From positions 8,372,634-8,436,633 of the forward strand of contig CP154954.1 in NCBI GenBank assembly GCA_039621445.1: a stretch of 64,000 nucleotides of DNA, read 5' to 3'. The translations under genes and the position numbers were made by a program. How positions within the stretch are numbered: position 1 is the first letter of the stretch; each line of letters opens with the position of its first letter. Of this stretch, positions 38,601 to 64,000 are shown piece by piece. Origin of the DNA: Euglena gracilis. Its lineage: Eukaryota. The notes beneath the pieces were generated by a model, which had not been told where the DNA came from, did no database searches, and saw nothing but the letters and a program-made list of their open reading frames with translations.

Positions 38601-41600
38601 CCTCGGCGTCCGCTGCCGTCCCGTGCCAGCAGGAGTCTCGGTACTCCTGGCTGGCCGGGTACGCCCACCGCGACAGAGCGTCCCCCACCTCGTTCTTCTC
38701 CCCCGGCACGTACACCACCTCCACCATGTGCTCGTTGAGCTTGGAGTGCCACCTCGCCCGCCGGCCCTGCGGTCCCGCTCCTCGGGCGACGTGCTCCTTG
38801 TAGCAGCTCTCCAAGGACCGGTGGTCCGTCAGCACCAGGACCTTCTGCCCGGTGATGTAGCCGCCCCACTTGTCCAGCGCGCTCACCACCGCGTACGTCT
38901 CCTTGTCCCGGGTATCCCACCGCAGCCGCTGCCCCTCCGTCAGCTTCCTGCTCATGAAGCCCACCGCCACCGTCGTCCCGGGCTTCAGGAGCTCCTCCAC
39001 CGAGGGGATGCCCTCCACCTTCGGCAGCTGCTCCAGCACGGCGCCCACCGCATAGTCAGAGGCGTCCGTGCGCAACACGAACGGCTTGTTCATGTCCATG
39101 TGCCACAGCTCCAGGTCCGCCACCAGCGCTGCCTTCAGCTTCTCGAACGCCTCCAGCTCAGCCGCGGACCACACGATGGGGTGCTTGCTGCCTGCCCGTG
39201 ACAAATCCCGCGGTAGCTTCAGCTTCTCCTGCAGGGGGGCGGCCAGCTCCGAGTACATACGTACATACCCCGAATAATAATTGCAGAGGCCGAGAAAGGC
39301 GCGCAAACTCGTCACATTGGCCGGGGGTTGCCACCGCTGCACCGCCGCCAGCTTGCCGCTCGCGGGCACGCGCTTGCCCTCCCCCAGCACGTGCCCCACG
39401 AACTCCGCCCTCTTGCGGAACAGCTGCGCCTTCTTCTTGTCCGCCACCCACCGATCCGCCTCCAGCGCCCGCAGGGTCTCCCGCAGATCCCCCGCGTGCC
39501 GCCTGATCAGCTCCTCGTCGCTCCAGCCCGGCAGCCGCCTCGTGCTCACCAGGATGTCGTCGAAGTAGGGGTGGGTGTGGGCGGAGACGTTGCGGCAGGT
39601 CGCGTCGATGTCCCTCTGGAGCAGCGCCGGACCGACGTTGATGCCCTGGGGCACCACGGTCCACTGCCAGAGGCCGCCGGGCAGGTGGATGTTGGTGATG
39701 GGTCGGCTTTCCTCCGCCATGGCCACCTGGTGGAAGGCGTCCCGCAGGTCCACCGTCGAGAAGATCTCGCACTTCGCCTGCTCGCTCACGATGTCCTCCG
39801 TCAGCGGTAGGGGGTCGGAGTCCATCTGCAGCATCTTGTTGGTCAAGCTGTAGTCGCACACCAGCCTCCACTTGCCCGACTTCTTGCGGATGGGGAAGGC
39901 GGCCGCCCTCCACGGCCCCCGCCCCGCCTCCAGCTTGCCGTCCGCCAGGCACTCCCGCTCCATCTCCCTCAGGGCCTCCAGCCGCTCGCCCTTGAGGTTG
40001 ATGATCCGGCCCACCACCGGGGTTGCTCCCGGCTTCAGCCTCAGCACTGCCTTCCCATGGGTGCCCCGCGCCGGGGGACACGGCCAGACTCGCTCACGGA
40101 ACACCCGGCCTTCGAACTCGTTGATGATCTCGTCCCGCAGCTGCCGCGCCAAGGGATGGTCGACATCATCTTCCGTCTCCACCACCCCTCGCACCGCCTT
40201 CGCCGCTTCTTCGGCCTCCTTCAGCATCATTGCCACTTCTCGGACTGCTGCCTCGTCCGTGGTCAGCTGCCGCATCTTCTTTACCGTGGAGAGGTAGCCG
40301 TCCAGCTCGTCTTCGTCTTCATCGCCATCTTCCTCCTTCTTCTCTTCGTCTCCACGCCGCCTCAGGATCCACTTGGGGTCCGCGTGGAGCTGCAAGGTGT
40401 CGCGCCATGGCTGGACATCCAGCCGGTTCTCCCGGAGCCATGGATACCCCAGGATCAGGTCCGTGCTGATGCAGCCGTCGTACGCCACCACCTTCGTCGT
40501 CCACGTCCTCGGTCTCCGCTCCTCGTCGTCGGTCTGGGCCGCGAAGAACAGCTTCAGCTCTGCTTCTCGTTGTCCTCCGGGTAGTGCTTCTCCGCTCACC
40601 GTGTGCAGCACCAAGGGTCTTGTTGCCGCGTAGAACACCGACTCCGGGAACAGCTCCTTCTTCACGAGGGATGTCTGCGCCCCCGTATCGATCAAGGCCT
40701 TCGCCTGGATCTTCATCCCGCCTGCCTCCACCTCCACGTCCATCAGCAGCTGGTAGCACCCCCCACGGTGCTCCATCCGGCCGACCGTGAACGGCCGGTT
40801 CGGGAGGTGCTGCCACGGCCGCACCACCACCTTCCACACCTTCTTCGCCTCCTCCGCCGCCGCCACTTCTTCCCGTGCCTTCTCCCCCAGGCACAGGTAC
40901 CGCACCACTCCCTCCGGGATGCGATAGGCCTCCTCCCTTGTGCACCTGCGCTCGCCGCCACTGCCTCCCAGCTGTAGCCGATGTCGTCGTACGCCGTCTG
41001 GTCCTTCCACCATGCTGCCGCACTTCCCACCACAGATGACGTCGTCCAGCTCCTTCGCCATCGCGTCGCTGACCCAGAAGCGGGTCGGCTTGCGATACCC
41101 ATACTCCGCGAAGCGGCAGTAGTCGATATCCACGTACCGCACTCCGCGCAGGACTCGTCGCCACCGCAGCAAGCCGAACCTCGGGTTTTCAATCCACCAC
41201 CGCGTAGGCGCCAAGTACTCCACCAGCTCCCTCGTGGCCTTCACCACCGCGTCCGCCATGCGGAGCCTCCTCTTGCGGGTGGTGAGGGCTGCGGAGTACT
41301 CGGTACAGGGCGGGGACGCCGCGATGACCTCGAAGTAGCCGGGAGCGTACTGCTCCCAGTACCTCCACTTCCTCACGTCGGCCACGATGTCCGGCTTCCA
41401 CTTCTCGTCCCAGTCCACGCTGATCACCTTGAAGCCCATCTTCTCCAGCGCTCTTCTGACACTGCCCGTTCCGGAGAACAGGTCCAGCGCCCATCTTTCC
41501 TTTTCTTCCTTCGCCGCCTTCTTCACCGGCTCTTTCTTCTCCTTCTTCGCCGGTGCTTTCTTCACCTCCTTCGCCGGTGCTTGTCTTTCTTGTGGTGGTG

Positions 41601-42069
41601 TCTTGTGGATACTTGGTGATGCCTTCGGTGATGATGTTGTCGGTGTTGTATATGGCGATGACGTGGATCTTGGTAGACTCGATCTCGATGTAGTCTTCGT
41701 TGCCGATGCCGTCGACGTTGATGAGGTCGATGATGTCTTCGTTGCCGATGCCGTCGGCGTTGATGAGGTCGATGATGTCTTCGTTGCCGATGCCGTCGGT
41801 GTTGATGAGGACGATGATGTCACCTTCGCCTTCGGCACGCTCGGTGATGTTGATGGGGACGATCGTGTCGGCTTCGCCTTCGACACCTGCCGCAGGCAGG
41901 GTCTCTCCCCTTCCTTTGGAGACTTCCTGCCTCTTCTCTTTCTTTGGACCAGCCGCCATCCTTCTTCTTCATACTCCACTGCTCTTACCAGCCTCGTCCC
42001 TGGTGCGGATGTCGGCTGGGGGGTTGACTGCCGGTCCTGGCCCTTCACCTCGGGACCTGGACGGCCCCG
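35611..42069 (-). pseudogene. pol: B1 pol: C5-MTase, aspartic protease, RT, RNaseH, Pro/Ala linker, integrase, chromodomain; one premature TAG at 38278-38280
   Basis: ORFs 38278-42048 and 35611-38268 are in frame. Motifs LIDTGAQ, YFDD, TDASDY, H-x4-H..C-x2-C, SVDLF/ITS(E/D)RG/RAE, WIGP, EWEVEAV..LVKWLGYEEKTWEP. Confidence 0.92.
40890..41493 (-). other. C5-cytosine DNA methyltransferase domain within B1 pol
   Basis: Motif I ALDLFSGTGS, motif IV ASPPCTEYS, motif VI WWIENP, motif VIII-like GYRKPTRFW. Confidence 0.88.
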
Positions 42070-45000
42070 TCATTGCTGCGTCGATGTCGTCCCGGCCGCT
42101 TCTCCTTTGCCGGAACCCTTCTCGCCGCCTTTGCCTTTCCCCTTACCCCTGCCTTTGCCTTTTCCACCATCTTTCCCCTTGGCTTCGCCGCCTTTGCCGG
42201 TCCATCCTTCATTCCACGGCTGCTGGTTGCCTTTGCCTCGGCCAGCCCAGCCTTGGGCATCGTTGGAGTCCTTGGTCTCGTCCACCTTCTTCGCTTCACC
42301 TTCCTTTTCTTTCTTCACCGCTTCCTTCTTCACTTCCTTGATGTTGGACTCCTCCTGGACTCCTTGGTTGGCCTTGGTGTCGGTCTCGTCATCTTCATCT
42401 TCGACATCCACTTCCCGCTGCAATCTTGTGGGTGCCGCCGGTTTGTGGTGGGCCGGCTCGGGGTCGCCCATGGTGGCGGCCCGCTGGTCCACCCTCAGTC
42501 ACCGCACCATGAGGTCGTTGACTTGGGTGGCGGTGAACTCCACGGTGTCCGGGGCCACCCGGACGATGGCTCCACCAGACAGCTTCTGCCGGTCGTACAC
42601 CTCCTTAATGGCCGCCCGGTGGTCATCATCCGCTGGGACCACCTTGATTCTTCTGCCTTGGCGATCCACTTTCTTCGGCACGACACCCGTCTCCTCCACC
42701 ACCATCTCCGTCGCCTCCGCCACCGTCACATCCTCCGGTAGGCCTTCCAGGACCAGCGCCGCGTGGTCACGGCACCGATCCTCTTCTTGGGCCAGCCGCT
42801 TCCTCCATGGCTGGCCCAGCTGGTCCACCACCAGGCGGGCTAGCTCCACGTCCGTCATGTCCCCGATCTGCATCGCCAGCGCCTTGGCGTTGGCGAAGTA
42901 CTCCCGCCACTCGCGCTCCGTCAGCTTGCCCCGCGTCACCACCTTGAGGTGACGGAGCTTCCTTCGTAGTGCTTCGTAGTGCTTCTCGGTCGTCTCCACC
43001 CAGCTCGAGGTCCAGCCTCGCCCACAGCTCCTCGAACGGCATCTCCGGGTAGGTCTCCACCATCAGGTCGATGTGCAACGCCGTCGCCTCGTCCACCGTA
43101 CTCCGCAGCAGCGCCACCCGCTGCGCCTCGCTGAGGAGTGAGACCATCCCCTCCACCTCGCGCTGGTACGGGAGCCACCGCCGCCTCCATTGGGGCCAGT
43201 CCTCGGCGTTACCCGAGAACCGGCCCGGATGCCTCCCCCCGAGCGCATCCAGGAGGTGCGGTGGCAGGATCTGCAGCTGGGGAGCCCCCAGCGGCGGGGT
43301 GGTTGCTTGGACTTCTCGGATGGCGGTTCCCCTCACGGGTGCGGGCACGCTCGCCCCCGCACGCATGAGGAGCATCGGTGCTGCATTCGTCGGCACCGGG
43401 CGGGATCGCACGAGCCGCAGCTCCGGTCGGAGCCGCGACGCGGGCGGATTGGCTGGGTCCGCTGGTGTGGCCGCAGTCGCAGCCGGCACCGCAGACTGCA
43501 TCACCAGCGGGGGCCTGCCGGCAGGATGGGATGATGGCTGCATGGCTGGCTGGGGAGACACCCCGGTGGCGAACGCCACCGCGGGGGTCTGATGCATGGC
43601 ATGCGATGGGTTGGGATGGACGGCTTGCTGGTACACCGTGCATTCGGCACACTGCGGATCAGTGCCTTCGGCACCCAGTGGCTGGCTTGACACGGGCACA
43701 GAGACTTGGGAGACGGGTCGGACTTGGACTCGGACAGACTGGGCAGCAGCCACCGGCACCGAAAGCGGTGCTGACGGCTTGGACAGGGCTGCGGTCGCCG
43801 CTTGCGGGTGTGATGCCGGATGCTGCGCTGCTCGGTGCGCTGGTGGGGCGGCGGTGCTGGCGGGTCGCGATGCCGGGGCAGACGGATGCGACGACAGCGC
43901 GGACTGCTGCACTTGCACGCGGGACGGTTGCGGATGGGACGGTGCACGTTGGGCCGCGGAGGACGACGGTTGGCGCTGGGACACGGACAGCGGCTCTGCT
44001 CGGATGACTGCGGCGGTGCTCGATCGGCGGGGGAATGCATACGCGGATTGCGGCATGGATATCCCTTCCCTTGCCGGGCGCGCGGTGGTTGACGATGAGG
44101 ACCGCTCAGCCGGGGCTCGGGCCGCCCCCGCCGACGCAGGCTGCGGGGCGGACTGGTAGGGATCGGCTGCCCCTCGGGTTGGCGGCGTGGTCTGAGCCGC
44201 CGAGGACACCGGGGGTCCCCCGGCTGGGCGGAGACCGGACATCTTGACAGACCACTGCTTGATCTCCACCTTTGCCATCTGAATCTCCCTGAACAGCGCC
44301 GTCACCACTTGGTCCACTTCCCGGAGGGCCTTCTCCAAGTACACCCTGCACTTGCCCTCCAACTCCACGGATATCCGGTCGGCCAGCTTGTTGAAATACT
44401 GCACCTGCAACGCCGGGATCTCGGTCTTGGAGTTGAGCTCCATCCGCTGCAGTCGCTCCTCCATCTGCCGCACCACCGTGGCGATCTCCTCCCGCGTCAC
44501 CATGGCTCCCCGGAGACGGGCCACCTCCACTGCCGTTTCCGGGTCCACCACCCGGGCCGCACCCTCGCCGGGGCCGGCACGCACCATCGCCGTCAAGCCT
44601 TGCACCTCTGCCTCGCGGCATCGGTGCTCAGCCTGCACGGCGGCGATTGCTTGGGCCGCCTCATCCGCCGCCTTTCGGGCGGCCGCCTTGGCTTGCGCCA
44701 CTTGGCCCTCGAGCCGTCCGTGCTGGGCTTGGATGGTCTCCATGAACTGCGCGATGACCTTGCCTTGCCCCTCCGCCACTTGTCGATAGGCCGCCGCGGA
44801 CGCCTCCTTCGTGGCTTTGATCTCCTTATCCATCTCCTCCAGCGCCGCGGTGGGCCAGTCATCAGACATCTCCCGGGTGCGGTTGCCCAGGAGGTCGAGC
44901 TGGGCCACCACCTGCCCGAGACTCGCCTCCACGCCGCGGACTTGGGCACCCACGGCGTCGATGCGGCTCGGCAGCCACACCGCCACCTCCTCCGACACCC

Positions 45001-51500: not shown

Positions 51501-54500
51501 CGGGAGGGGGCACACCTTATCCACCGGGTGTACTGCCTTCGGGCAGCTGCGCTCCGCGGCCTTCTCCTCTCGGATCTGCTGCTCCATCTCCTCGGCGTCC
51601 GCTGCCGTCCCGTGCCAGCAGGAGTCTCGGTACTCCTGGCTGGCAGGGTACGCCCCACGCGACAGCGCGTCCCCCACCTCGTTCTTCTCCCCCGGCACGT
51701 ACACCACCTCCACCATGTGCTCGTTGAGCTTGGAGTGCCACCTCGCCCGCCGGCCCTGCGGTCCCGCTCCTCGGGCGACGTGCTCCTTGTACCAGCTCTC
51801 CAAGGACCGGTGGTCCGTCAGCACCAGGACCTTCTGCCCGGTGATGTAGCCGCCCCACTTGTCCAGCGCGCTCACCACCGCGTACGTCTCCTTGTCCCGG
51901 GTGTCCCACCGCAGCCGCTGCCCCTCCGTCAGCTTCCTGCTCATGAAGCCCACCGCCACCGACGCCCCGGGCTTCAGGAGCTCCTCCACCGAGGGGATGC
52001 CCTCCACCTTCGGCAGCTGCTCCAGCACGGCGCCCACCGCATAGTCAGAGGCGTCCGTGCGCAACACGAACGGCTTGTTCATGTCCACGTGCCACAGCTC
52101 CAGGTCCGCCACCAGCGCTGCCTTCAGCTTCTCGAACGCCTCCAGCTCGGCCGCGGACCACACGATGGGGTGCTTGCTGCCCGCCCGTGACAAATCCCGC
52201 GGTAGCTTCAGCTTCTCCTGCAGGGGGGCGGCCAGCTCCGAGTACATACGTACATACCCCGAATAATAATTGCAGAGGCCGAGAAAGGCGCGCAAACTCG
52301 TCACATTGGCCGGGGGTTGCCACCGCTGCACCGCCGCCAGCTTGCCGCTCGCGGGCACGCGCTTGCCCTCCCCCAGCACGTGCCCCACGAACTCCGCCCT
52401 CTTGCGGAACAGCTGCGCCTTCTTCTTGTCCGCCACCCACCGATCCGCCTCCAGCGCCCGCAGGGTCTCCCGCAGATCCCCCGCGTGCTGCCGGATCAGC
52501 TCCTCGTCGCTCCACCCCGGCAGCCGGCCTCGTGCTCACCAGGATGTCGTCGAAGTAGGGGTGGGTGTGGGCGGAGACGTTGCGGCAGGTCGCGTCGATG
52601 TCCCTCTGGAGCAGCGCCGGACCGACGTTGATGCCCTGGGGCACCACGGTCCACTGCCAGAGGCCGCCGGGCAGGTGGATGTTGGTGATGGGTCGGCTTT
52701 CCTCCGCCATGGCCACCTGGTGGAAGGCGTCCCGCAGGTCCACCGTCGAGAAGATCTCGCACTTCGCCTGCTCGCTCACGATGTCCTCCGTCAGCGGTAG
52801 GGGGTAGGAGTCCATCTGCAGCATCTTGTTGGTCAAGCTGTAGTCGCACACCAGCCTCCACTTGCCCGACTTCTTGCGGATGGGGAAGGCGGCCGCCCTC
52901 CACGGCCCCCGCCCCGCCTCCAGCTTGCCGTCCGCCAGGCACTCCCGCTCCATCTCCCTCAGGGCCTCCAGCCGCTCGCCCTTGAGGTTGATGATCCGGC
53001 CCACCACCGGGGTTGCTCCCGGCTTCAGCCTCAGCACTGCCTTCCCATGGGTGCCCCGCGCCGGGGGACACGGCCAGACCCGCTCACGGAACACCCGGCC
53101 TTCGAACTCGTTGATGATCTCGTCCCGCAGCTGCCGCGCCAAGGGATGGTCGACATCATCTTCCGTCTCCACCACCCCTCGCACCGCCTTCGCCGCTTCT
53201 TCGGCCTCCTTCAGCATCATCGCCACTTCTCGGACTGCTGCCTCGTCCGTGGTCAGCTGCCGCATCTTCTTCACCGTGGAGAGGTAGCCGTCCAGCTCGT
53301 CTTCGTCTTCATCATCTTCCTCCTTCTTCTCTTCGTCTCCACGCCGCCTCAGGATCCACTTGGGGTCCGCGTGGAGCTGCAAGGTGTCGCGCCATGGCTG
53401 GACATCCAGCCGGTTCTCCCGGAGCCATGGATACCCCAGGATCAGATCCGTGCTGATGCAGCCGTCGTACGCCACCACCTTCGTCGTCCACGTCCTCGGT
53501 CTCCGCTCCTCGTCGTCGGTCTGGGCCGCGAAGGACAGCTTCAGCTCTGCTTCTCGTTGTCCTCCGGGTAGTGCTTCTCCGCTCACCGTGCGCAGCACCA
53601 AGGGTCTTGTTGCCGCGTGGAACACCGACTCCGGGAACAGCTCCTTCTTCACGAGGGAGGTCTGCGCCCCCGTATCGATCAAGGCCTTCGCCTGGATCTT
53701 CATCCCGCCTGCCTCCACCTCCACGTCCATCAGCAGCTGGTAGCACCCCCCACGGTGCTCCATCCGGCCGACCGTGAACGGCCGGTTCGGGAGGTGCTGC
53801 CACGGCCGCACCACCACCTTCCGCACCTTCTTCGCCTCCTCCGCCGCCGCCACTTCTTCCCGTGCCTTCTCCCCCAGGCACAGGTACCGCACCACTCCCT
53901 CCGGGATGCGGTAGGCCTCCTCCCTTGTGCACCTGCGCTCGCCGCCACTGCCTCCCAGCTGTAGCCGATGTCGTCGTACGCCGTCTGGTCCTTCCACCAT
54001 GCTGCCGCACTTCCCACCACAGATGACGTCGTCCAGCTCCTTCGCCATCGCGTCGCTGACCCAGAAGCGGGTCGGCTTGCGATACCCGTACTCCGCGAAG
54101 CGGCAGTAGTCGATATCCACGTACCGCACTCCGCGCAGGACTCGTCGCCACCGCAGCAAGCCGAACCTCGGGTTTTCAATCCACCACCGCGTAGGCGCCA
54201 AGTACTCCACCAGCTCCCTCGTGGCCTTCACCACCGCGTCCGCCATGCGGAGCCTCCTCTTGCGGGTGGTGAGGGCTGCGGAGTACTCGGTACAGGGCGG
54301 GGACGCCGCGATGACCTCGAAGTAGCCGGGAGCGTACTGTTCCCAGTACCTCCACTTCCTCACGTCGGCCACGATGTCCGGCTTCCACTTCTCGTCCCAG
54401 TCCACGCTGATCACCTTGAAGCCCATCTTCTCCAGCGCTCTTCTGACACTGCCCGTTCCGGAGAACAGGTCCAGCGCCCATCTTTCCTTCTCTTCCTTCG

Positions 54501-56079: not shown

Positions 56080-56603
56080 TGTCGGCCGCCGGCTTGCGCC
56101 GGCAGCCAAAAATTGCCAGAAGGCGCAAATTTCAAAGTCGCGGCTAACAGCCAATCAGTTAAAAATACCCGCGACTTAAATTGGAAGCGGGTCAAATTTC
56201 GAAGCGCCTTCGAATTTGTTTTTTTTCACAGAACTTGAGGGGTTTTCCCCAATATTTGGCAAGAAGGAATACTATTGTATTGAATTTGGCATTTGGACTT
56301 TGATTTGGAGTTGCAAGCTGAGTTCATTGTTGGTCATTGATTCATTGAAGTCAATTCAATTGAAGGAGCCTTAAACACCACCGCCCACTCCCTCTATACC
56401 GCCACCTTCGCCTCCATCACCTACCACTCCTTGCCCCAAGGTTTGCACATTTCATACATTCACATTTCACAGTTTCAGTTTCAACTGTCTTCTCATTCAA
56501 GTTTCAGAGTTTCAGAAATCAAGTTTCTTTCAGTTTTGGCTTCAAAGTTCCAAGTTTCAGTAGGTTGGTTTTGCAAGGTGTGCAAGAGAGTGTGAGAGTG
56601 AGT

Positions 56604-56643
<40 letters not shown>

Positions 56644-56938
56644 GTGAGTTTTTCGCACCAAATGGCAGATTTTTCGATTTTGAGCAAAATTTCAGAAACC
56701 GCAAAAAAAACGATCCTACGCACCGGCTGGGGTTGGGGAAACCACCTGGGTGAGAAAACGGGGGTTGATTTGAGCCCACCAACCCCTGGAGAAAGCGCAG
56801 GCCCCACCCCGGAAACACCCACCCCCCTGCTGTCGGTGGTCCTCCCCACCGGCGAGGACCCCCCGGGGCCCTCGGCCCGAAGGGACTCGGCGGTCGCGGG
56901 GGCGACCGGCGGCCCGGGGGTGGCGGACCCGGTCAACA
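56080..56938 (+). repeat. Putative family C 5' LTR (~860 bp) containing a (GA)n microsatellite at ~56585-56642
   Basis: Begins TGTCGGCCG and ends CGGTCAACA (imperfect inverted termini), followed by TGGTTAGCAGAGG. The partner LTR is outside the window. Confidence 0.65.
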
Positions 56939-59900
56939 TGGTTAGCAGAGGTTGGCTCACTGACTTCGTCAGTAAGGATTTTTCAGATCCGGTAAACATG
57001 GTACACGAGGGCAGTTTCACCAACCCAGTTGTCTGTGAATTTTCAGAAGAATCTGCAGAAATGTGCTCGTTTTCAGATCATTCTGTCCGAGTTTCAGATT
57101 GTGGTGAAAATTTTCTGAGATCTGTGGCAGAAATCAATTTTCAGAACGAAAAGGAAACTGTGTTTTCTGCAGCCCAGTTTTCAGAACCTGTGGCATCATT
57201 GCAAATCGTGACGGAATCTGTGGCAGAAAACAATTTTCAGGCTACAGAAACTTTATCGTCTTCAGAATTTTCAGAAACGACACAGGAATCAGAATCTGAT
57301 GCTGATTCGGGGAGGGGGTCAATTACATTCATAAGGCCCATCACGGTGGCAGGGCCAGAAAATTTTCAGCTGGTTCCACTGCACAGCAGTGATGAGGAAC
57401 CAGACCCCCCAGCTTACGAAAGCGAAACAGAGGAAGAAAAACAGGCTGAAAACGCCATAATTCAGGAAATGGTTATGCAAAGAATGAAAGCTGCTGGCAT
57501 GTGGCCAGTAAATTTTTCTGGTTTTCAGCAAATTTCTGTGTCGTCACGAGACAGCAGCCCAGGGCCAGAACAAAAAATGTTGTGTTTAACAGCCCAGCCA
57601 GAACCATTGCTGTTAACACAGAGTTCAGAAACGCAGTCAGCACAGCCAGCTGCAGCCCAGCTGCAGGTTTTTCAGCCAGCCCAGCAGTTTTCGGCTGGGT
57701 CATCTGTTCCAGCAATCATGGGGCCAGCCCAGATGACTTCACAGGTTTTTCAGCCAGCCCAGCAGTTTTCGGCTGGGTCATCTGTTTCAGCAATCATGGG
57801 GCCAGCCCAGATGACTTCACAGGTTTTTCACCCAGCCCAGCAGTTTTCGGCTGAGTCATCTGTTCCAGCAATCATGGGGCCAGCCCAGATGACTTCACAG
57901 GTTTTTCAGCCAGCCCAGCAGTTTTCGGCTGGGTCATCTGTTCCAGCAATCATGGAGCCAGCCCAGATGACTTCAAAGGTTTTTCAGCCAGCCCAGCAGT
58001 TTTCGGCTGGGTCATCTGTCCCAGCAATCATGGGGCCAGCCCAGATGACTGGGCAGGTTTTTCAGCCAGCGTCAACAGTGTCTTCAAACACAGGCCCAGC
58101 CCAGGTTTTTGAGCCAATTCAGCCAGATTTTCCACAGACCCAGCCACAGAATTTACAGCCAAACACCAGTTTTTCTGCAGAAACTGGGTCCGAAAACCCT
58201 GAAAATCAGCATGATGTGGAAATGGAATCGGGCTATGGCCAATCTGATGATGATTGGAACAATTGGGGTGAAGAAATCAGTTGCAAAATTGAATGTTTAC
58301 ATGGCAGGCTTTTGGTGCAGGAAGGAAAAAATCCTGAAAAAATGGCTGAAAATCTGGTGGGGGAGGCAGAAAACAGGCTAAATCGGGCATTGGCCATGTC
58401 ACATCGGCAGACATTGAATCTGGTCAATGAGGCATTGGGCATGCATGATCAGCGAATGGCTGATCACATTGCCATGGTGAAACGTGAAATTCAGGCTGAA
58501 CTGAGTGCAACCATAAACGACTTGCTTTTGCAGTTTCAGCAAAATGGTGAAATGGTGCAAAATCTGGCCCAATGCCAACGGCATTTGTTGAGTGTGGAAA
58601 TGGAACGGCAGTTTGCTGAAAAAGTTAAGAAAGTGGAGGATGGAGTTAACTCGTTTTTTGAGGCCCAGGTTGAGGGGTTGAGAAAAAATAAGAGGGATTT
58701 TTCTCAGAAACTGTCGATTTTGGAAAAATCTGTGGGGGAGATGCACGTGGTGGTGCAACAAGTGGGGGAGAAGGAAAAGCAGCAGGAAATTGCTGTTAAT
58801 CAGGTCAAATCTGCAGTCGGTGAGCTAAGCTCTGATCTGGAGGGACGCTTTGGGATCATTTTTCAGCAATGCAAAGGTTTGGGGGAGACTGAGTGTGCCA
58901 ATTTTCAGGCACAGGCTGAGAAATTGAAGGAATTTTCACAGTCCCTGGAGCGAGAGAGCAAAGCTCTGAATGATCGTTTGGGGAGGTTGGAGAATTTTCT
59001 GGGTCGGAAAGATTTTCCCATTGAGAAAGTCTGTGACCTGATTAACAAGAGCGAGGAAACAATTCGGTTGGAGGTGCAAAGGGAGTTGGGGCTGCAAACG
59101 AGAAAGAATTTGGAGGTCATTATCAGTGAAATGTTGCAGGAAAGGTTGAGGCTGAGTGAAAGGGAGGGGCAGTTTGAAAAAGTTCGGGCTGAAATGGAAA
59201 ACTCAATGAAACAGCAGGTTGGAATTTTACTGCAACAGCAGTGCATTGAACTTCGAAAAGAACAGCAGGAGCGGAAAAAATTGCAACAAAAGCTGGATTT
59301 ATTTCAGGCTGAGTTTTTGGTGATGAAAAATCAGCAAGCTGAATCTGCCAAATCTGCGACAGTGGATCTGACAAAGGAAACGAGAGAAAAATCAGCTGGA
59401 AACCCAGAAATCGAAGAGTTTGATCTTTTTGGTTACAACGATTTACCTGTGATCGGGAAAAATCCGGTTGAAATTGAAGGCTATGAATACGCTGAACCAG
59501 GGTCACATGCGACACATGTCAGGCAGGTTTGTGCACGACCTGTGGGGGCAGTGCCTGCAGGTGCAGGACTGGTTTCATCAAATGCAGTGGCAACGCATCA
59601 ATTGATGAAAAACCTGGTAGCTCCAAATTTTTCTGGACAGCCAAAAGACTGGTCGTCCTTTGTGCGGGATTGGGATCAATATTTCAGGACGTTGGTTATT
59701 TTGCAAAATGGACATATGTCTGATTCACTCAAGCTTCAGCTTTTTGCAATGACGCTGGACGACACAAATCAAAAGGAATTGCAATTCCGACTGGAATTGA
59801 ACGGAAAAACATCTTTCGAGGAGGAATTTGACAGGCTTGAAGGGAAATATGCTGGAACTCAATCCGAGTGTGCCAGAAAAAAATGGTATGATGTGAACCT

Positions 59901-60888
59901 CGTGAACCAAGGGAAAATTACCGTACAGGAATGGCGAGATTTTGTCATAAATTTCAGAATAGCCTGGAGACAGGTGAAAAGCGCCACTGACGATGAGGCA
60001 GAAAGACTGGTCAAGGGAAAACTGCCAAATTTCATTTTGCATTGGGTCGCCGATGAGGAGGAAAGGAAATCAACGTGTGGACCGAAAGTCCAAATATACC
60101 CTGGAGTGCCTGCAACCGAGGAAAACATTATTTGTGCTGTGGAACGTGTCACTGGGGAAAAGCCCTGCAAGGTTTCGAAAGTTTCACCGCTGGAGTTCGA
60201 AGTCTTTTTGCCCAACACTACGATTTGCGACAAACTGAAAGAGGTCAGTGGGAAACCAATCACAGGCACGGATAAAAGGATCAAAATTGTGGAGGAACAG
60301 CCAAAAATGGGAGTTGAAGAAATTTTCCGTTTTGTTGAGCGAAAATTGTCATCCAGGGATTCTCAAGACATGATACACAGTTCCAGGGAGCCAAATGCAT
60401 TTGGAAACCGGAGGGCCAGGTCTGCTAAGGCAGATCGGGCCAAGGGGTCCAGGACACCCTCCCCAACACGGTCAGCAAAGGGGGGCGAAACGGTGGCAAA
60501 ACCGTCCGTTGGAAAATCAGATTCACAGGTGGCAGCTCCTGCGACCAATGCAAACGTGAACCCCCCCGTGCAAAATCCAGTGCCAGTGGTTCGATCACAG
60601 TCATTGCCACCCCCCCAGCAATCTCAATTTGGCAATGGGGGGGGATGGAGAAACGATTCTGGGTGGAATTCCAATGCCAATGCCAATTTTCAGGGAAATC
60701 AGTGGTGGCACTCAAATCAACAGAATTTTGATTCACAGTCTGGTGGTGGCAAAGGCAAAGGCAAAGGCAAGGGCAAAGGAAACAATTCTTGGGGGAAAGG
60801 AAACAATGGAAATGACTGGTCTAGGGGAAAGGGCCAGGATGGTGGAAAAGGCAAAGGAAAAGGAAGGGGGAAAGGAAACCGTTGCTAG
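56662..60888 (+). CDS. gag: Family C Gag (start uncertain: ATG 56662 or 56998)
   Basis: ~1300-1400 aa open frame. Core APNFSGQPKDWSSFVRDW...TLDD...GKITVQEWRDF aligns with B gag (FSGNAEDWPQWRRRW...GKLTEREWREY). Coiled coil and GKG/W-rich tail. Confidence 0.85.
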   Translation: MADFSILSKISETAKKTILRTGWGWGNHLGEKTGVDLSPPTPGESAGPTPETPTPLLSVVLPTGEDPPGPSARRDSAVAGATGGPGVADPVNMVSRGWLTDFVSKDFSDPVNMVHEGSFTNPVVCEFSEESAEMCSFSDHSVRVSDCGENFLRSVAEINFQNEKETVFSAAQFSEPVASLQIVTESVAENNFQATETLSSSEFSETTQESESDADSGRGSITFIRPITVAGPENFQLVPLHSSDEEPDPPAYESETEEEKQAENAIIQEMVMQRMKAAGMWPVNFSGFQQISVSSRDSSPGPEQKMLCLTAQPEPLLLTQSSETQSAQPAAAQLQVFQPAQQFSAGSSVPAIMGPAQMTSQVFQPAQQFSAGSSVSAIMGPAQMTSQVFHPAQQFSAESSVPAIMGPAQMTSQVFQPAQQFSAGSSVPAIMEPAQMTSKVFQPAQQFSAGSSVPAIMGPAQMTGQVFQPASTVSSNTGPAQVFEPIQPDFPQTQPQNLQPNTSFSAETGSENPENQHDVEMESGYGQSDDDWNNWGEEISCKIECLHGRLLVQEGKNPEKMAENLVGEAENRLNRALAMSHRQTLNLVNEALGMHDQRMADHIAMVKREIQAELSATINDLLLQFQQNGEMVQNLAQCQRHLLSVEMERQFAEKVKKVEDGVNSFFEAQVEGLRKNKRDFSQKLSILEKSVGEMHVVVQQVGEKEKQQEIAVNQVKSAVGELSSDLEGRFGIIFQQCKGLGETECANFQAQAEKLKEFSQSLERESKALNDRLGRLENFLGRKDFPIEKVCDLINKSEETIRLEVQRELGLQTRKNLEVIISEMLQERLRLSEREGQFEKVRAEMENSMKQQVGILLQQQCIELRKEQQERKKLQQKLDLFQAEFLVMKNQQAESAKSATVDLTKETREKSAGNPEIEEFDLFGYNDLPVIGKNPVEIEGYEYAEPGSHATHVRQVCARPVGAVPAGAGLVSSNAVATHQLMKNLVAPNFSGQPKDWSSFVRDWDQYFRTLVILQNGHMSDSLKLQLFAMTLDDTNQKELQFRLELNGKTSFEEEFDRLEGKYAGTQSECARKKWYDVNLVNQGKITVQEWRDFVINFRIAWRQVKSATDDEAERLVKGKLPNFILHWVADEEERKSTCGPKVQIYPGVPATEENIICAVERVTGEKPCKVSKVSPLEFEVFLPNTTICDKLKEVSGKPITGTDKRIKIVEEQPKMGVEEIFRFVERKLSSRDSQDMIHSSREPNAFGNRRARSAKADRAKGSRTPSPTRSAKGGETVAKPSVGKSDSQVAAPATNANVNPPVQNPVPVVRSQSLPPPQQSQFGNGGGWRNDSGWNSNANANFQGNQWWHSNQQNFDSQSGGGKGKGKGKGKGNNSWGKGNNGNDWSRGKGQDGGKGKGKGRGKGNRC
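56939..56951 (+). promoter_or_regulatory. PBS-like site, initiator Met tRNA with a 1-nt bulge
   Basis: TGGTTAGCAGAGG versus TGGTAGCAGAGG in family B. Confidence 0.6.
57664..58070 (+). repeat. 78-bp coding tandem repeat (26 aa QVFQPAQQFSAGSSVPAIMGPAQMTS, ~5 copies)
   Basis: Units start at 57664, 57742, 57820, 57898, 57976 and 58054 (partial). Confidence 0.95.
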
Positions 60889-63800
60889 GACAGCCGGGGT
60901 GGACCGTTGGGGGCGGGAGCCGCCCCGGGCTCGCATACCCAGCCCCACACAAAGACATACGCAAATCCCAGGTGGCAAGAAAACTCTCGTGTGAGTGAAA
61001 CCACGATGAAAAATCTGCCATCCCAGGAGAGCTCTACACAAGGTGTGTCCAGTGTGTCGGGTGCGTGCCTGCGTGACGTGCAAATCTGTGACTCGGCCCA
61101 AATCTGTAAAAAACCAGACCTCATAAGAGGTCGTGCACAGCCTTCCGTAAAGAAAAGAGCTTTAGACCTTTTTTGCGGTAAAGGCTCGGTTGGGGATTGC
61201 CTGAGAGAGCAGGGGTTTAAGGTTGTGTCAGTGGACATAAACCCCAGATTTAACCCAACCCACTGTGCAAATATTTTGGAGTGGAGATATTGGAGGTACC
61301 CCCCCGGATATTTTCAGATCATCGCTGCGGGGGTGCCCTGTACAGAATATAGCTTGGCCAAAACATTGGGAGTCAGAAATTTGGAGGGGGCAGATCGGCT
61401 GGTCAAAAAAACTTTGGAGATTGTCGAATATTTCAAGCCAAAATTGTGGTGGATTGAAAATCCCCGTCATGGACTTTTGCGGAAAAGACCCTGTGTTCAA
61501 AATCTGACTTTTGTCGATGTTGATTATTGTCAGTTTTCAGATTGGGGATATCAAAAGCCCACCCGAATCTGGGGGAGCGAAAATCTGAGCAAGCTACAAA
61601 ACAAACTTTGTGATGGCCAGACCTGCCCGAATTTGATTCCTGGGGGGAGGAGTCACCGAGAAAAGTTGGGAGGATATGGAATGACAGTTGGCACTCAGAA
61701 AAAATGGAGGATGCCCAAACAACTGGTGGAGTATTTGTTAACCGTGTTGGAACGAAAAAGCGGATATCGTAGGGAGGATTATGCTGTTAGGAAAGTTTGT
61801 ATGGAGGAAATTGAGAAGGAATTTCGGGTTAAGGCGGAACGGGATTGTTTTGCAACCAGCCAAAATGCCAGGTGTGAAAAGTTTTACGGGGAGGATGATG
61901 ATGCCATGAAAAAGGATTGGGGGGCGGAGGAAACGTTGTGGATGAACCCCCCCTGGACTTTGTGGCCTGAGGTGGCTGAAAAATTGCAAAATTCCAATTG
62001 TCGGGCAATTTGTATTTGCCCAGACTGGAATAGGAGGTGGGTGAAAAATCTGGTGGCTATGGCTGTCAAAAAGATTTATTTTCCCAAGGGGACAAAGTTG
62101 TTTGAGGCTGATGGGAGGATTTTGAGGGGTACCCGTTGGGGGGTGTGGGCCTTGTTGGTTGATAGAAGGCAACTCTCCCAGGGGGGGGCAGCCCCAGGGA
62201 AGAAAAAATTGGTGCGGCTGAAAAAAAGAATGTTGAGGGGGACGAAAACTCGGGGAGGATCGAAGAAACTTGGGGAGGACAGACAACTGCTGTTAAAAAC
62301 CCAGATTAAGTTGGCAAATGGGGAGGAAAAAACGGCCAGAATTTTGATTGACACGGGGGCGGAGGCAAACCTCATTCGACAAGGGTTGATAGGGGACCAC
62401 CTAATGTATCCTGCTAAGGACCCGCTAAGGTTTGAAACTGCCAATGGGCAAACTTTGGCGGGGGGGAGCAGATGTGCAAAGGTGAAAATGATCCTACAAC
62501 AAAATTGGAATGAGGAAAGGGAAATTGAGAGGGTGGAGTATGAGGTTGAATTTTATCAGGCAAACATCAACGTTGATGCCATTCTTTCTTATCCATGGTT
62601 GGCGGAGGCAAAACTGGGAATTTTTCCACACCACAAGGCGTTGGTGAAAGACAGCCCAGACCTGATTTTTTTGCGGGGTGTTGAAAGACGGAGGGGTCCG
62701 CAAAAATTCAGTGATGACAAAAATTTTTCAGTGGACAATGTGACTGTGGCAGACGGGTCTTCGTTTGGGTTGCAAAAATTTGGTCTTTGTTTGCCATTGG
62801 AGGGGTTGGACCAAGAATTGCAATTTTTGAGCGATGAGGACCTGGGGGAGGTTGCCACAAATTTGGAGGGAAGTGACCCCCCTGTGCAAGTTATCAACCG
62901 AATGATAATTGCAAGGGAGGGGGAGGACAAAAAAGAGGAGGAACGGGTAGTCAAGTTGAGGGAACAAGTTTTGGAAGATTACAGGGGGACGGTATTTCGG
63001 TCATCGCCATTTCCAGACCCCCCCGAAAGAGGACAATATGGTTATGCATACATACCTTTGAAGGAGGGGGCAAAGCCAACCAGACAGAAGCCTTTTTTCA
63101 TGCACGGTGAGAGGAAAGAGGCACTTGAGAAAATCACACAAGACTGGCTCGACAAAAAATACATTGAGCCAGCCGCAGCCAAAAATTCTGAATGGCTGTC
63201 CCAGACTTTTCCGGTTCCAAAAAAATCCAACGATTTTCCTTGGAGGGGGGTGGTGGACCTCAGGGGCCCAAACAGCCAAACAAGGCGATGCAACTACCCC
63301 CTACCCAAAATTGAAGACATTTTGGTCAAACATGGTGCAAACCAAATGTTTTCGATCATCGATTTGAAGCAAGCTTTTCACCAACAACCCTTGCACCCAG
63401 AAAGTCGACCCATAACGTGTTGTTTTACCCCCAAAGGCATTTTTCAGTGGAGGGTGAACGTAATGGGTTTGACAAATGCCCCCCAACAATTTCAGCAAAT
63501 GATCGATGACCGTTTGACACCAGTAAGGGATATCGCCACAGGGTACATAGACGACATACTGGTGAGGACAACGGTCGGGGAAGGGGAGGATCTAGTGGGG
63601 GCACATGAAAAAGATTTGAGGAGGGTGTTGGAGGTGCTGAAAACAGAACTTTTGGTGGCTGATGAATTCAAAGCCAAACTTTTCGTTGAGGAGGTCGAAT
63701 TTTGTGGACAAATTTTAGGAAACGGGACTAGGAGGCCTGCACCGGGTAAGTTACGAGCGATCGAAAAGTGGGAGGTTCCAAAAACAATTACGGCTTTGAG

Positions 63801-64000
63801 AGCCTTTTTGGGATTCACAAATTATTACAATGCATACATTCACATGTATGCGGAAGTAGCTGCCCGGCTGCAAGACAAATTGAAAGTCCCCAGGGAGGTG
63901 GGAAAGAAAGGAAGTCGAAAACCTGTGGAATTTGATGGGGAGGATTTAAAAGCTTTTGAGGAGCTGAAAAAAAGGTTGTGTTCGGGCCTAATGTTGCAAC
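60889..64000 (+). CDS. pol: Family C Pol, partial: C5-MTase, Dam-like amino-MTase, protease, RT; in frame with gag after one TAG
   Basis: Manual translation shows no stop from 60889 to the window end. ILIDTGAEAN at ~62341, IDLKQAFHQ at ~63358, YIDD at 63544-63555, LRAFLGFTNYY at ~63796. Confidence 0.93.
61156..61740 (+). other. C5-cytosine DNA methyltransferase domain in C pol
   Basis: RALDLFCGKGS, AAGVPCTEYS (PC 61336-61341), WWIENP (ENP 61456-61464), DVDYC..WGYQKPTRIW. Confidence 0.88.
61770..62165 (+). other. Dam-like (phage/DIRS-type) amino-methyltransferase domain in C pol
   Basis: RDCFATSQNARCEKFY..DDAMKKDW..ETLWMNPPW (NPPW 61945-61956)..AICICPDW..WV. Confidence 0.8.

Follow-up and report, generated by a model that had tools for sequence, protein, structure and literature searches.

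A Euglena gracilis chromovirus of the EpiLTR kind with C5-cytosine and Dam-like methyltransferase domains in tandem ahead of the protease

Introduction

The pol frame of an LTR retrotransposon in Euglena gracilis opens with a C5-cytosine methyltransferase domain (DNMT) followed directly by a small Dam-like domain (DAM), both placed ahead of the protease, and this fusion is confirmed as real. The element lies in the 64,000-nucleotide stretch that we analysed, hereafter the window (assembly GCA_039621445.1, contig CP154954.1, positions 8,372,634 to 8,436,633 of the forward strand), which holds the 5' two-thirds of a chromovirus-type Ty3/Gypsy retrotransposon of the kind called EpiLTR. The domain order, the confident folds, the intact and conserved motifs, an excess of synonymous variants and the recurrence of the same fusion in other sequencing runs and in relatives are all observed. 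On this basis we consider it fairly probable that the element writes both methylation marks on its own reverse-transcription products or on the new insertion, and that its DAM was inserted into an ancestor having DNMT followed by the protease (PR).

Architecture of the element

A single reading frame encodes, in order, the DNMT, a 6-residue linker, the DAM, a basic linker, the PR with its DTG motif and the reverse transcriptase (RT) with its YIDD motif. The initial annotation had read these four domains in one frame from the letters of the sequence, and the frame, the Pfam matches and the motif coordinates agree with it. Upstream lies ORF1, in the same frame as pol and closed by a single TAG. 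The features are the following, in positions of the window.

56082..56661, forward strand: putative 5' LTR and leader (5' terminal region of the element), starting where copy 2 of family B stops matching copy 1
56662..60885, forward strand: ORF1, gag-like, counted from the first ATG; its stop-to-stop frame of 1428 codons runs from 56602 to 60888
60886..60888, forward strand: single in-frame TAG at the ORF1/pol boundary, from the reading of the frame
60889..63999, forward strand: pol frame P0001, 1037 open codons (1037 aa), open up to the end of the window
61150..61758, forward strand: compact C5-cytosine DNA methyltransferase domain, aa 88-290, from profiles, model, fold and motifs
61777..62178, forward strand: small Dam-type (PF05869) N6-adenine methyltransferase-like domain, aa 297-430, from profiles, model, fold and the DCFA and NPPW motifs
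62179..62283, forward strand: basic linker from DAM to protease, modelled with low confidence (pLDDT 39-54 over the final four blocks)
62284..62568, forward strand: aspartic protease, DTG at 62350-62358, with weak Pfam matches to gag-asp_proteas and Asp_protease_2
63217..63714, forward strand: reverse transcriptase, YIDD at 63544-63555, Pfam RVT_1 E=1.2e-17
53881..54477, reverse strand: DNMT of family B copy 2, 47.5% identical to P0001 aa 91-283, with the protease directly after it and no DAM
40894..41490, reverse strand: DNMT of family B copy 1, with the protease directly after it and no DAM, from sequence comparison and Pfam

The 5' end of the element is placed at 56081/56082, where the homology between the two copies of family B (D13) stops, and the element sits inserted inside another retrotransposon. 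A second copy of 56082..56661 was looked for within the 64-kb window and none was found, the position of a 3' LTR falling past the window end. ORF1 contains 78-nt repeats (family D3) at 57586-58148 and ends in a Gly/Lys-rich tail; the Pfam search assigned it to no family, and its residues 1009-1193 bear a weak likeness to the ORF upstream of the pol of family B. The linker between DAM and PR varies among the aligned relatives and closes on a conserved LK.RM motif. An Rfam search of the window returned zero families at the gathering score.

The element is considered a chromovirus because a relative that is 98.5% identical to P0001 over the shared 733 aa, P0015, continues with RNase H, an integrase (rve and Integrase_H2C2 in Pfam) and a chromodomain. 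The last of these, PF00385 Chromo, is found at the C-terminus of the integrase in P0015 (E 4.8e-13) and in the more distant P0007 (E 2.2e-9), and would lie beyond the window end in the window copy. The order PR, RT, RNase H and integrase is thus composed of two domains seen in the window and two read in P0015 and P0007, and from the near-identical P0015 the window copy may be expected to possess RNase H, integrase and chromodomain too. The ratio of observed to expected CpG is 0.54 in the element, with TG and CA in excess, a depletion that is compatible with long-term CG methylation.

Reality of the fusion and constraint upon it

The fusion is not an assembly artefact, because the DNMT/DAM junction, near 61759-61776, is spanned by contigs of three further runs: record 11 of run X15 (61675-62213), record 20 of X18 (61558-62872) and record 29 of X20 (61598-62012). 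More broadly, at least half of the sampled words of the element are present in 20 of the 24 listed runs, which derive from 16 studies. Run X20 is an RNA library and contains the family, as judged from contigs alone, which do not in themselves prove transcription; in this library, one of 30 bins (63450-63563) is without cover.

Could the apparent fusion nevertheless be an assembly chimera, or the product of one element nested in another? Caution about nested insertions and assembly artefacts has been expressed for the LTR retrotransposons of Euglena that carry a DAM, or DAM-LTRs (bioRxiv 10.64898/2026.05.21.726589), and the element studied here is itself inserted in another retrotransposon. Against this stand the single uninterrupted frame, the independent contigs from three runs spanning the junction, a structural model of the two domains that is confident through the junction, and the finding that 8 of 67 first-round relatives keep the order DNMT-DAM-PR, with 50-76% identity in the DNMT domain. 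An artefactual or nested origin is consequently exceedingly unlikely.

Seven relatives with the same domain order (P0003-P0009) are 55-76% identical in the DNMT, 49-70% in the DAM and 52-66% in the protease, with an RT identity of 78-85% in the four that extend to the RT. The methyltransferase domains show identity as high as that of the protease, which is consistent with constraint. Among the listed variants between copies, 25 of 39 are synonymous versus 21.6% expected at random; five fall inside the two methyltransferase domains (three synonymous and two nonsynonymous), too few for evaluating constraint domain by domain.

The C5-cytosine methyltransferase domain

The DNMT domain presents motif I as ALDLFCGKGS (61159-61188), motif IV as PCTEYS (61336-61353), motif VI as ENP (61456-61464) and a motif VIII-like QKPTR (61552-61566), the names I, IV, VI and VIII following the literature on the family. 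The characteristic C5 set, namely FxGxG, Pro-Cys, Glu-Asn-x and the Arg of motif VIII, is present in the window DNMT and conserved in its relatives: PC is found in 186 of the 198 domains covering this position, and ENP in 167 of 205, a further 30 having ETP. Similarly, the catalytic residues are retained as Cys151 in 196/199, Glu190 in 207/208 and Arg226 in 191/201 relatives.

In profile searches, Pfam PF00145 DNA_methylase matches the domain with E=3.4e-4 and 20.6 bits, just below the cut-off of 22, over profile positions 4-117 of 324; scores among relatives lie on both sides of this cut-off, with P0007 (26.7) and P0014 (23.2) above it, and family B (16.5) and P0023 (17.8) below. The PHROGs families give stronger values, E=4e-13 for phrog_363 and E=3e-11 for phrog_757. 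A plain sequence search of PDB with 61156-62380 produced nothing significant (best E 0.33; DIM2 E 1.1), and the profile of alignment A3 found in PDB only a weak match to DNMT1 (E 0.0025), through the DNMT parts of its full-length rows, its DAM part having no match. The AlphaFold2 model of DNMT and DAM together has a mean pLDDT of 88.5 and is confident across the junction. When this model was compared with Foldseek, all the 36 matches listed (within ranks 1-50) were C5 DNA methyltransferases, with E of about 1e-7; MET1 was among them, as were DNMT3A/B/C, M.HhaI, M.HaeIII, DNMT1 and DIM2, these last with probability 1.00.

The usual target-recognition domain is missing, since only about 45 residues separate the strand of motif VIII from the last helix. 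In its place, this gap is occupied by a conserved Cys/Cys/His set, part of a Cys3-His cluster formed by Cys214, Cys241, Cys246 and His256. The window DNMT is a member of a compact family in which this Cys3-His cluster is conserved, and which is also encoded by stand-alone genes on phage-like contigs. Given its motifs and modelled fold, the domain would be a writer of 5mC.

The Dam-like domain

The DAM domain contains DCFA (61843-61854), NARC (61864-61875), NPPW (61945-61956) and CPDW (62017-62028). That the segment 61770-62165 would be a Rossmann methyltransferase with a conserved NPPW had been advanced from the letters alone, and both profile and fold bear it out. Pfam PF05869 Dam passes its cut-off of 28.1 with 40.0 bits (E=4.1e-10), covering profile positions 19-70 of 169 only; phrog_111 of PHROGs gives E=1.4e-11, and TIGR01712 phage_N6A_met of NCBIfam E=7e-11, under its curated cut-off. 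Among relatives, 49 of 52 DAM domains have NPP[W/F/Y], and at least 43 of 49 have DxFA. Modelled alone, the domain reaches a pLDDT of 93.2, and its best matches in BFVD are small phage N6-adenine methyltransferases (E 1e-8, TMq 0.70-0.80), giant-virus PCIF1-like proteins being weaker (E 1e-4 to 1e-3). Within PDB the best match is PCIF1 (Z 10.1, 136 of 145 residues aligned; E 4.5e-5 and TMq 0.62 by Foldseek); the rRNA adenine methyltransferases ErmE, Erm38, DIMT1 and KsgA come next among solved structures, and T4 Dam and E. coli Dam have Z 8.7 and 8.5.

These structural likenesses raise a question of substrate: does the domain act on RNA, or only on RNA:DNA hybrids? PCIF1 is an RNA cap adenosine methyltransferase, and the domain might deposit m6A, or cap-adjacent m6Am, on the genomic RNA of the element, as PCIF1 and enzymes of the Erm and KsgA type do on their own RNAs, instead of 6mA on double-stranded DNA. 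Eukaryotic DAMs expressed in dam- E. coli produced no rise of 6mA in DNA, and the authors of that work raise an RNA-DNA hybrid as substrate (bioRxiv 10.64898/2026.05.21.726589). However, the profiles favour the Dam families acting on phage DNA (PF05869, TIGR01712 and phrog_111), the models of phage DNA N6-adenine enzymes outscore those of giant-virus PCIF1-like proteins, and T4 and E. coli Dam score on a par with the rRNA enzymes (Z 8.5-8.7). Moreover, copies of DAM-LTRs are enriched in 6mA in the DNA of three species, as the same preprint reports. An RNA-directed activity is accordingly, in our estimate, distinctly unlikely, and the DAM domain is predicted by its sequence and model to write N6-methyladenine on DNA.

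The negative assay in E. coli could also be taken as a sign that catalysis has been lost in one domain or in both, with retention as nucleic-acid-binding or structural modules. Agreeing with this are the truncation of the DNMT with respect to PF00145, its score under the curated cut-off and the equally partial match to the Dam profile. Yet nearly all relatives preserve the DNMT's catalytic Cys, Glu and Arg and the DAM's NPP[W/F/Y], and stand-alone phage homologues of about 236 aa share the compact layout, so that loss of catalysis appears very improbable.

Relatives and the gain of the DAM module

In evolutionary terms, the contrast between the window element and family B concerns how the DAM came to reside between DNMT and PR. 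Family B lies on the minus strand and, as had been noted initially, has the DNMT joined directly to the protease. In Pfam, its copy 1 shows DNA_methylase (weak), RVP, RVT_1 and RNase H at 38281-42069(-), and rve and Chromo at 35614-38277(-). The proposal that the DAM was gained or lost within this lineage agrees with the RT tree, in which a clade of seven rows with DNMT-DAM-PR-RT (support 100/99) is nested in a clade of 17 rows (100/99) that otherwise have DNMT-PR-RT, P0028 being the exception. The tree does not sustain the further view that family B is the sister of the window family, because DNMT-PR-RT elements in environmental assemblies are closer relatives without DAM. Most likely, judging from this topology, the DAM module was inserted between DNMT and protease in a DNMT-PR ancestor.

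As a source of the module, the initial annotation had suggested DIRS elements like those in the window, which we did not find. A six-frame scan of the window with the DAM profile (565 ORFs) matched this element alone, with no second DAM, and the 98 ORFs that reach 130 aa or more within 1-33.5 kb match neither tyrosine recombinase nor Dam; in two Pfam sets of 10 and 88, their matches were confined to RVT_1 (3) and RNase H (1 each), a search that short or decayed DIRS fragments could escape. Homology searches with the DAM only retrieved 2 and 15 proteins, either unnamed environmental ones or P0015, with no DIRS sequence among them.

Stand-alone relatives of both modules exist in phages. Ten viral contigs of IMG/VR encode a stand-alone DNMT homologue with 33-41% identity, and one of them also matches a D5-like primase and a terminase. 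One such phage-like homologue (L020), of 236 aa, has the signature DYC..GY.KPTR, the same Cys/His cluster and the same compact layout. A similarity look-up in the Atlas, at 0.89 and hence below the 0.9 line, points as a lead only to small DNA_methylase clusters of Uroviricota. The metagenome scan yielded 38 loci out of 60 pattern matches, none with the domain order of the window; no locus carries a DAM, because none matches past query residue 239. In a cluster look-up of nine proteins, the only organism named was 'Genlisea aurea' (M569_12700), the labels being otherwise generic (transposase InsO family, hypothetical protein).

Among the relatives in environmental assemblies, the two methyltransferases occupy at least eight different orders within Pol. 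What is new here comprises these orders, the nested DNMT-DAM-PR clade, the compact DNMT family with its Cys3-His cluster and the finding of no DIRS in the window. Together they allow a wider reading, which we put forward tentatively as a possibility: the DNMT-DAM-PR family would be a lineage of dual-methylation chromoviruses apart from the two published EpiLTRs, within a large superfamily, seen to date in environmental assemblies only, in which two phage-type enzymes were transferred, each as a module of its own, to at least eight positions of Pol. This pair consists of the compact C5 methyltransferase, with the Cys3-His cluster replacing the recognition domain, and of the small Dam. If this were true, both marks would be phage-derived and not host-derived, and there would have been repeated selection for both enzymes wherever the polyprotein can accommodate them.

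Comparison with known elements

LTR retrotransposons having DAM, DNMT and chromodomain have been named EpiLTRs and described in Euglena gracilis and Cymbomonas tetramitiformis (bioRxiv 10.64898/2026.05.21.726589, May 2026); the earlier statement that no Ty3/Gypsy element was known with both enzymes is hence out of date. The window element combines DAM and DNMT in one LTR retrotransposon, with the chromodomain read in P0015 and P0007. It shares with EpiLTRs a Ty3/Gypsy-type pol with Dam-like and C5 methyltransferases and, through P0015, a chromodomain, as well as a DAM pared down, relative to bacterial Dam, to the surroundings of the NPP pocket. EpiLTRs are further characterised by a DNMT in the clade sister to DNMT4 and by a DAM in the eukaryotic TE-DAM clade; on this point the sequence search gave only the weak match to DIM2 already mentioned. 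The DNMT of the Cymbomonas element lies at the 3' extremity of pol, whereas the window element has its two enzymes at the 5' extremity, ahead of the protease. The Euglena EpiLTR, compared by its text description, which omits the domain order, may be the same family as that of the window or a different one.

In the same preprint, the DAM-LTRs comprise five lineages of LTR retrotransposons, with a DAM of DIRS type acquired by capture. As in the window family, a PF05869-type DAM with NPP lies inside a gypsy-like pol, with a patchy distribution suggesting capture; the difference is that the relatives found here always pair DAM with DNMT, as follows from a search that took the DNMT as its anchor. 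DIRS elements likewise have a small Dam-like domain in pol (PMC5890265; bioRxiv 10.64898/2026.05.21.726589), but use a tyrosine recombinase, whereas the window family has a DDE integrase and a chromodomain, as seen in P0015.

A C5-DNMT within the coding region of a retrotransposon is also present in KnitGypsy-Dnmt3, SymbioDIRS-Dnmt3 and SymbioLINE-DNMT (de Mendoza et al. 2018, PMC5890265). C5 methyltransferases in retrotransposons of dinoflagellates and charophytes, to which the initial annotation had appealed, are indeed on record there, though the Gypsy element is that of the charophyte and those of dinoflagellates are LINE- and DIRS-like. In KnitGypsy the DNMT is inside pol and under purifying selection. 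As described there, these DNMTs are of Dnmt3 type or host-derived and have no adenine methyltransferase alongside; the window DNMT is instead a compact domain of about 200 aa, the nearest profiles of which are phage families. The small phage methyltransferases (PF05869/TIGR01712/phrog_111 and phrog_363/phrog_757) resemble the window domains in profile (E 1e-10 to 4e-13) and fold (TMq 0.70-0.80), but they are free-standing genes, while in the window the two are fused in tandem within the polyprotein of a eukaryotic retroelement, with NCBIfam scores under the curated cut-offs.

A possible mechanism

In retroelements, Pol domains placed upstream of the protease and behind the gag stop are usually made at low level as Gag-Pol and packaged. 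For the window element, Gag-Pol could be formed by read-through of the TAG, or else pol could initiate at the ATG at 61006. Read-through is without support because the RNA downstream of the TAG folds no better than its shuffled versions (96 nt around the TAG, z = +1.07, with 171 of 200 shuffles folding at least as well). Synthesis of Gag-Pol would bring both enzymes into the particle, where the protease would free them; in the particle or the pre-integration complex they would then methylate the reverse-transcription products of the element or its new insertion, the DNMT writing 5mC and the DAM 6mA. The new copy would thereby arrive already marked with host-like methylation. Following published models, 6mA may attract the host maintenance enzyme and permissive chromatin, 5mC may imitate the default methylated state, and the chromodomain would direct where the copy lands. 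Retrotransposon DNMTs are able to methylate CG de novo (PMC5890265), and the deposition of 6mA on reverse-transcription intermediates has been proposed as a model (bioRxiv 10.64898/2026.05.21.726589).

Alternatively, the enzymes could act on DNA in trans, on host chromatin at the integration site or throughout the genome, rather than on the element's own cDNA in the particle. Such elements could alter the epigenomic environment of the host (PMC5890265), the chromodomain links the integrase to chromatin, and packaging of the enzymes is for this element presumed from its layout. But that layout, with both domains upstream of the protease in Pol and behind the gag stop codon, is one for which packaging is usual, and the published models prefer an action on reverse-transcription intermediates (bioRxiv 10.64898/2026.05.21.726589); we therefore regard an action in trans as unlikely and favour methylation of the element's own reverse-transcription products or new insertion.

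Significance

Only very recently have retrotransposons been discovered that bring their own writers of 5mC and 6mA together with a chromatin reader; the window element is a good example of them, neither the first nor a new category. The copy in the window is clean and apparently intact, with both enzymes in tandem before the protease, and its family is abundant in the sequencing runs of the host. Comparison of its relatives reveals frequent reshuffling of the two modules, and phages encode close, free-standing relatives of the cytosine methyltransferase. The family thus offers testable material on the substrate of each enzyme, on the Cys3-His cluster as a possible substitute for the recognition domain, and on whether self-methylation may serve a retrotransposon in escaping, or exploiting, the epigenetic system of its host.

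Layout of the Element

The Ty3/Gypsy element under study (family A) extends from position 56082 to the window end; the remaining 3' portion, with the 3' LTR if there is one, lies beyond. When the frames and motif positions were re-read, the two-methyltransferase layout and the coordinates of the initial annotation proved accurate:

56602-60888, + strand: ORF1, a gag-like frame of 1428 codons (stop to stop, standard code)
60886-60888, + strand: single TAG between ORF1 and pol, the two frames being in phase
60889-63999, + strand: pol frame of 1037 codons, open to the window end
61159-61188, 61336-61353, 61456-61464 and 61552-61566, + strand: motifs ALDLFCGKGS, PCTEYS, ENP and QKPTR of the C5-cytosine methyltransferase domain (DNMT, aa 88-290 of pol)
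61843-61854 and 61945-61956, + strand: DCFA and NPPW of the Dam-type domain (DAM, aa 297-430), in the order DCFA, NARC, NPPW, CPDW
62350-62358 and 63544-63555, + strand: DTG of the protease (PR) and YIDD of the reverse transcriptase (RT), in the pol frame after DAM

The 5' end was placed at 56081/56082, the point beyond which unit 2 of family B, a tandem pair of minus-strand elements in the window, no longer matches unit 1; this start sits within the upstream ORF of family B. ORF1, which matched no Pfam family, is unusually long, with a helical-looking middle and a Gly/Lys-rich tail replacing a recognisable zinc knuckle. It contains six copies of a repeat unit (66-100% alike, 78 nt or 26 aa spacing, 57586-58148), and aa 1009-1193 are its sole part weakly resembling the upstream ORF of family B.

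Beyond the methyltransferases, Pfam recognised in pol two weak aspartic-protease matches and RVT_1 (1.2e-17). A related protein of 1540 aa (P0015), 98.5% identical to the window pol over 733 shared residues, continues downstream into RNase H, Integrase_H2C2, rve and a chromodomain, while another (P0007, 63% identity) joins DNA_methylase (26.7 bits, above cut-off), Dam, RT, RNase H, integrase and Chromo in a single protein. Since both carry RNase H, integrase and chromodomain, the window element is classed, by homology, as a chromovirus-type Ty3/Gypsy retrotransposon. A 22-residue segment of the chromodomain region is directly duplicated at the C-terminus of P0015.

Assembly error is a very unlikely origin for the two-domain fusion. 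Of the 24 public sequencing runs listed, 20, from 16 studies, contain at least half of the words sampled from 60600-63999; all but one carry a single organism label, and one is a leaf-litter metatranscriptome. The DNMT/DAM junction is crossed by contigs of three runs; of these X20 is an RNA library, whose contigs do not prove transcription:

61675-62213: X15 record 11, 3 differences
61558-62872: X18 record 20, 17 differences
61598-62012: X20 record 29, 2 differences

Variants among copies comprised 40 listed positions and 101 further ones; leaving out one in ORF1, the 39 listed variants divide into 25 synonymous and 14 non-synonymous, the random expectation being 21.6% synonymous. Just five fall in the two methyltransferase domains together (three synonymous; the other two, both at the C-terminal edge of DAM, non-synonymous), too few for a per-domain reading of constraint among copies.

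Two Methyltransferase Domains of Different Kinds

Pfam supported the two domains unequally: DAM matched Dam PF05869 well above cut-off (E=4.1e-10, 40.0 bits vs 28.1, aa 305-357), whereas DNMT scored slightly below that of DNA_methylase PF00145 (E=3.4e-4, 20.6 bits vs 22), with aa 92-199 aligned to profile positions 4-117 of 324. PHROGs profiles scored above Pfam (phrog_363 at 4e-13 and phrog_757 at 3e-11 for DNMT; phrog_111 at 1.4e-11 for DAM), and NCBIfam returned phage_N6A_met TIGR01712 (7e-11) and dcm (9e-5), each below its curated cut-off. A plain sequence search of the PDB with the two-domain region was uninformative.

The AlphaFold2 model of aa 80-467 (45-row alignment) had a mean pLDDT of 88.5 and pTM of 0.69, low confidence being confined to the basic tail following DAM. 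All 36 Foldseek matches listed for it within ranks 1-50 of the PDB were C5 DNA methyltransferases, including DNMT3A/B/C, M.HhaI, M.HaeIII, DNMT1, DIM2 and MET1 (E about 1e-7, probability 1.00, ~185 aligned columns). For DAM modelled alone (145 aa, 25 rows; pLDDT 93.2, pTM 0.88), the top PDB match was PCIF1, a methyltransferase of cap adenosine (Foldseek E 4.5e-5; Z 10.1). ErmE and Erm38 ranked next, ahead of T4 Dam (Z 8.7, rmsd 2.5 with 104 residues), E. coli Dam (Z 8.5), DIMT1, KsgA and METTL5, N6-adenine methyltransferases throughout. Among viral models, the small DNA N6-adenine methyltransferases of phages matched best (E 1e-8 to 1e-7, TMq 0.70-0.80). These profile and fold matches bear out the reading of 61770-62165 as a Rossmann methyltransferase; an alternative for its substrate is RNA or a hybrid. 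Because the motif has the adenine-type form, NPPW, the mark of DAM is more likely to be 6mA than 4mC.

The window DNMT is compact, at only some 200 aa, and has a Cys3-His cluster (61528-61656, aa 214-256) where a normal target-recognition domain would stand. The cluster residues are kept at nearly all covered sites, both in retroelement relatives (Cys214 206/207, Cys241 189/190, Cys246 187/188, His256 166/172) and in ORF segments of metagenome loci (38/38, 35/35, 34/34 and 22/24, respectively), and probably form a zinc site. Distant loci of 31-41% identity share the signature DYC..GY.KPTR with the window DNMT. IMG/VR viral contigs account for ten of these loci (L020 [same contig as L044], L039-L048), with stand-alone DNMT homologues 33-41% identical; on the L020/L044 contig the homologue, the sole ORF measured for length, has 236 aa (L020 7995-8705) and neighbours a D5-like primase and a weak terminase match. 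An Atlas look-up pointed in the same phage direction with a sub-threshold score.

Conservation among Relatives

A word-indexed search with aa 80-460 yielded 67 proteins, nearly all from environmental assemblies. Among 1.84 billion representatives, searched exhaustively without a profile, 3769 matched at E<=0.001, of which 261 reached E<=1e-30. Motifs were counted among 231 relatives, over the domains covered at each site. The PC motif is present in 186 of 198 DNMT domains and ENP in 167 of 205 (ETP in 30 others), with Cys151 kept in 196/199, Glu190 in 207/208 and Arg226 in 191/201; DxFA occurs in at least 43 of 49 DAM domains. The NPPW motif holds up as well, 49 of 52 DAM domains having NPP[W/F/Y].

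Seven proteins (P0003-P0009) share the domain order of the window element; their identity to it is 55-76% in DNMT, 49-70% in DAM and 52-66% in protease, and 78-85% in RT for the four that extend so far. Because the methyltransferase identities are as high as those of the protease, both enzymes are under constraint at least equal to it; a rival reading is that the methyltransferase domains are dead. The only relative with an organism name, P0021 (GenBank EPS62093.1, 'Genlisea aurea' M569_12700, partial), is a DAM-PR-DNMT fragment, which could be a contaminant from a protist trapped by the carnivorous plant or a genuine plant copy.

Evolution of the Domain Order

Elements related to family A lie elsewhere in the window:

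about 33.1-46.1 and 45.9-56.08 kb, - strand: family B units 1 and 2, head-to-tail, ~13 kb start to start, 96-100% identical
10248-12556, - strand: decayed gypsy pol resembling that of family B, frame-broken, its PR, RT and RNase H remnants spread over several frames

Family B is a chromovirus with GC of about 66% (33100-56081, - strand), each unit having one tandem array of ~49-bp repeats (34.1-35.2 and 46.9-48.2 kb). Its DNMT, 47.5% identical to window aa 91-283, is followed by the protease within about 35 residues, then RT, RNase H, integrase and chromodomain, and it has no DAM, as the initial annotation had recognised.

How did DAM come to stand between DNMT and protease? In an RT tree of 48 rows (those with <170 of 200 RT residues excluded), the window element and six DNMT-DAM-PR-RT rows form a clade (support 100/99) nested in a 17-row clade (100/99), the other rows of which are DNMT-PR-RT except P0028, whose DAM, placed as in the window element, is more divergent. 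Family B lies apart, in a clade of three rows, and a second clade of 28 rows has DNMT after the protease and DAM in variable position. This tree is most simply explained by one or two insertions of DAM between DNMT and PR, losses being also possible; the nesting agrees with the earlier proposal that the second methyltransferase was gained or lost within the lineage. Capture from DIRS elements, as proposed earlier, is a possible origin of DAM. In the window itself, a six-frame DAM scan and Pfam on 98 ORFs of at least 130 aa from 1-33.5 kb found no DIRS element, and DAM-only homology searches retrieved no DIRS DAM.

At least eight domain orders occur in the relatives, proteins P0010-P0052 of environmental assemblies among them: DNMT-DAM-PR-RT, DNMT-PR-RT, PR-DNMT-RT, PR-DAM-DNMT-RT, DAM-PR-DNMT-RT, DAM-DNMT-PR-RT, PR-DNMT-DAM-RT and PR-DNMT-RT-DAM. 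Counts per order are lower bounds, since many rows are fragmentary. Pfam confirms the positions of DNMT, DAM and RT in P0007, P0014 and P0023; in P0044 it gives a weak Dam match and RT, and no PF00145 match.

Relation to Described Elements

Retrotransposon DNMTs have been described in SymbioLINE-DNMT, SymbioDIRS-Dnmt3 and KnitGypsy-Dnmt3, with de novo CG methylation demonstrated (De Mendoza et al. 2018, PMC5890265). A preprint of May 2026 (bioRxiv 10.64898/2026.05.21.726589), the one description of the DAM + DNMT combination in a full-text literature search, reports DAM domains in five lineages of non-DIRS LTR retrotransposons and names 'EpiLTRs' those with DAM, DNMT and chromodomain, the DNMTs being sister to DNMT4. 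The claim that no Ty3/Gypsy element with both methyltransferases was known is thereby contradicted in kind: the window element either adds a new member to the group reported in 2026 or, possibly, re-sights one of its elements. The initial observation stands, its interpretation in part only. According to the preprint text, the EpiLTR of Cymbomonas tetramitiformis has DNMT at the 3' end of pol, whereas the window element has both enzymes at the head of pol; that of Euglena gracilis has a 'structurally distinct' layout, its order being without detail in the text, and the window family may be among these Euglena elements. The preprint further states that eukaryotic DAMs align to bacterial Dam only around the NPP pocket, consistent with the partial Pfam match of the window DAM, that 6mA is enriched on DAM-LTR copies in three species, and that heterologous DAMs in E. 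coli gave no 6mA.

Functional and Evolutionary Implications

In the window element, pol follows a gag-like ORF and a single TAG. At its head stand two methyltransferase domains, tethered and well folded, which keep their catalytic motifs intact and are conserved across relatives; a basic disordered linker comes between them and the protease. By analogy with retroelement pol expression, Gag-Pol would be made by read-through of the TAG, or pol would be initiated at ATG 61006. The two frames in phase around a single TAG resemble read-through retroviruses; RNA downstream of the TAG folds no better than shuffled sequence and offers no structure supporting read-through. As in other retroelements and in line with the two papers, both enzymes might be packaged and then freed by the protease, whereupon RT products or the fresh insertion would be methylated, with 5mC by DNMT and 6mA by DAM. 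Alternatively, the methyltransferases may act in trans on host chromatin.

Families A and B, adjacent in the window and with related DNMTs, contrast in CpG observed/expected: 0.54 in family A (56082-64000), with TG + CA in excess, and about 0.9 in family B (35600-42100). The deficit of family A is compatible with a heavily CG-methylated genome and proves nothing.

What the window element and its relatives add to present knowledge is the reshuffling of modules among them, a DNMT-DAM-PR clade nested in DNMT-PR, and a compact DNMT of phage type with a conserved Cys3-His cluster.
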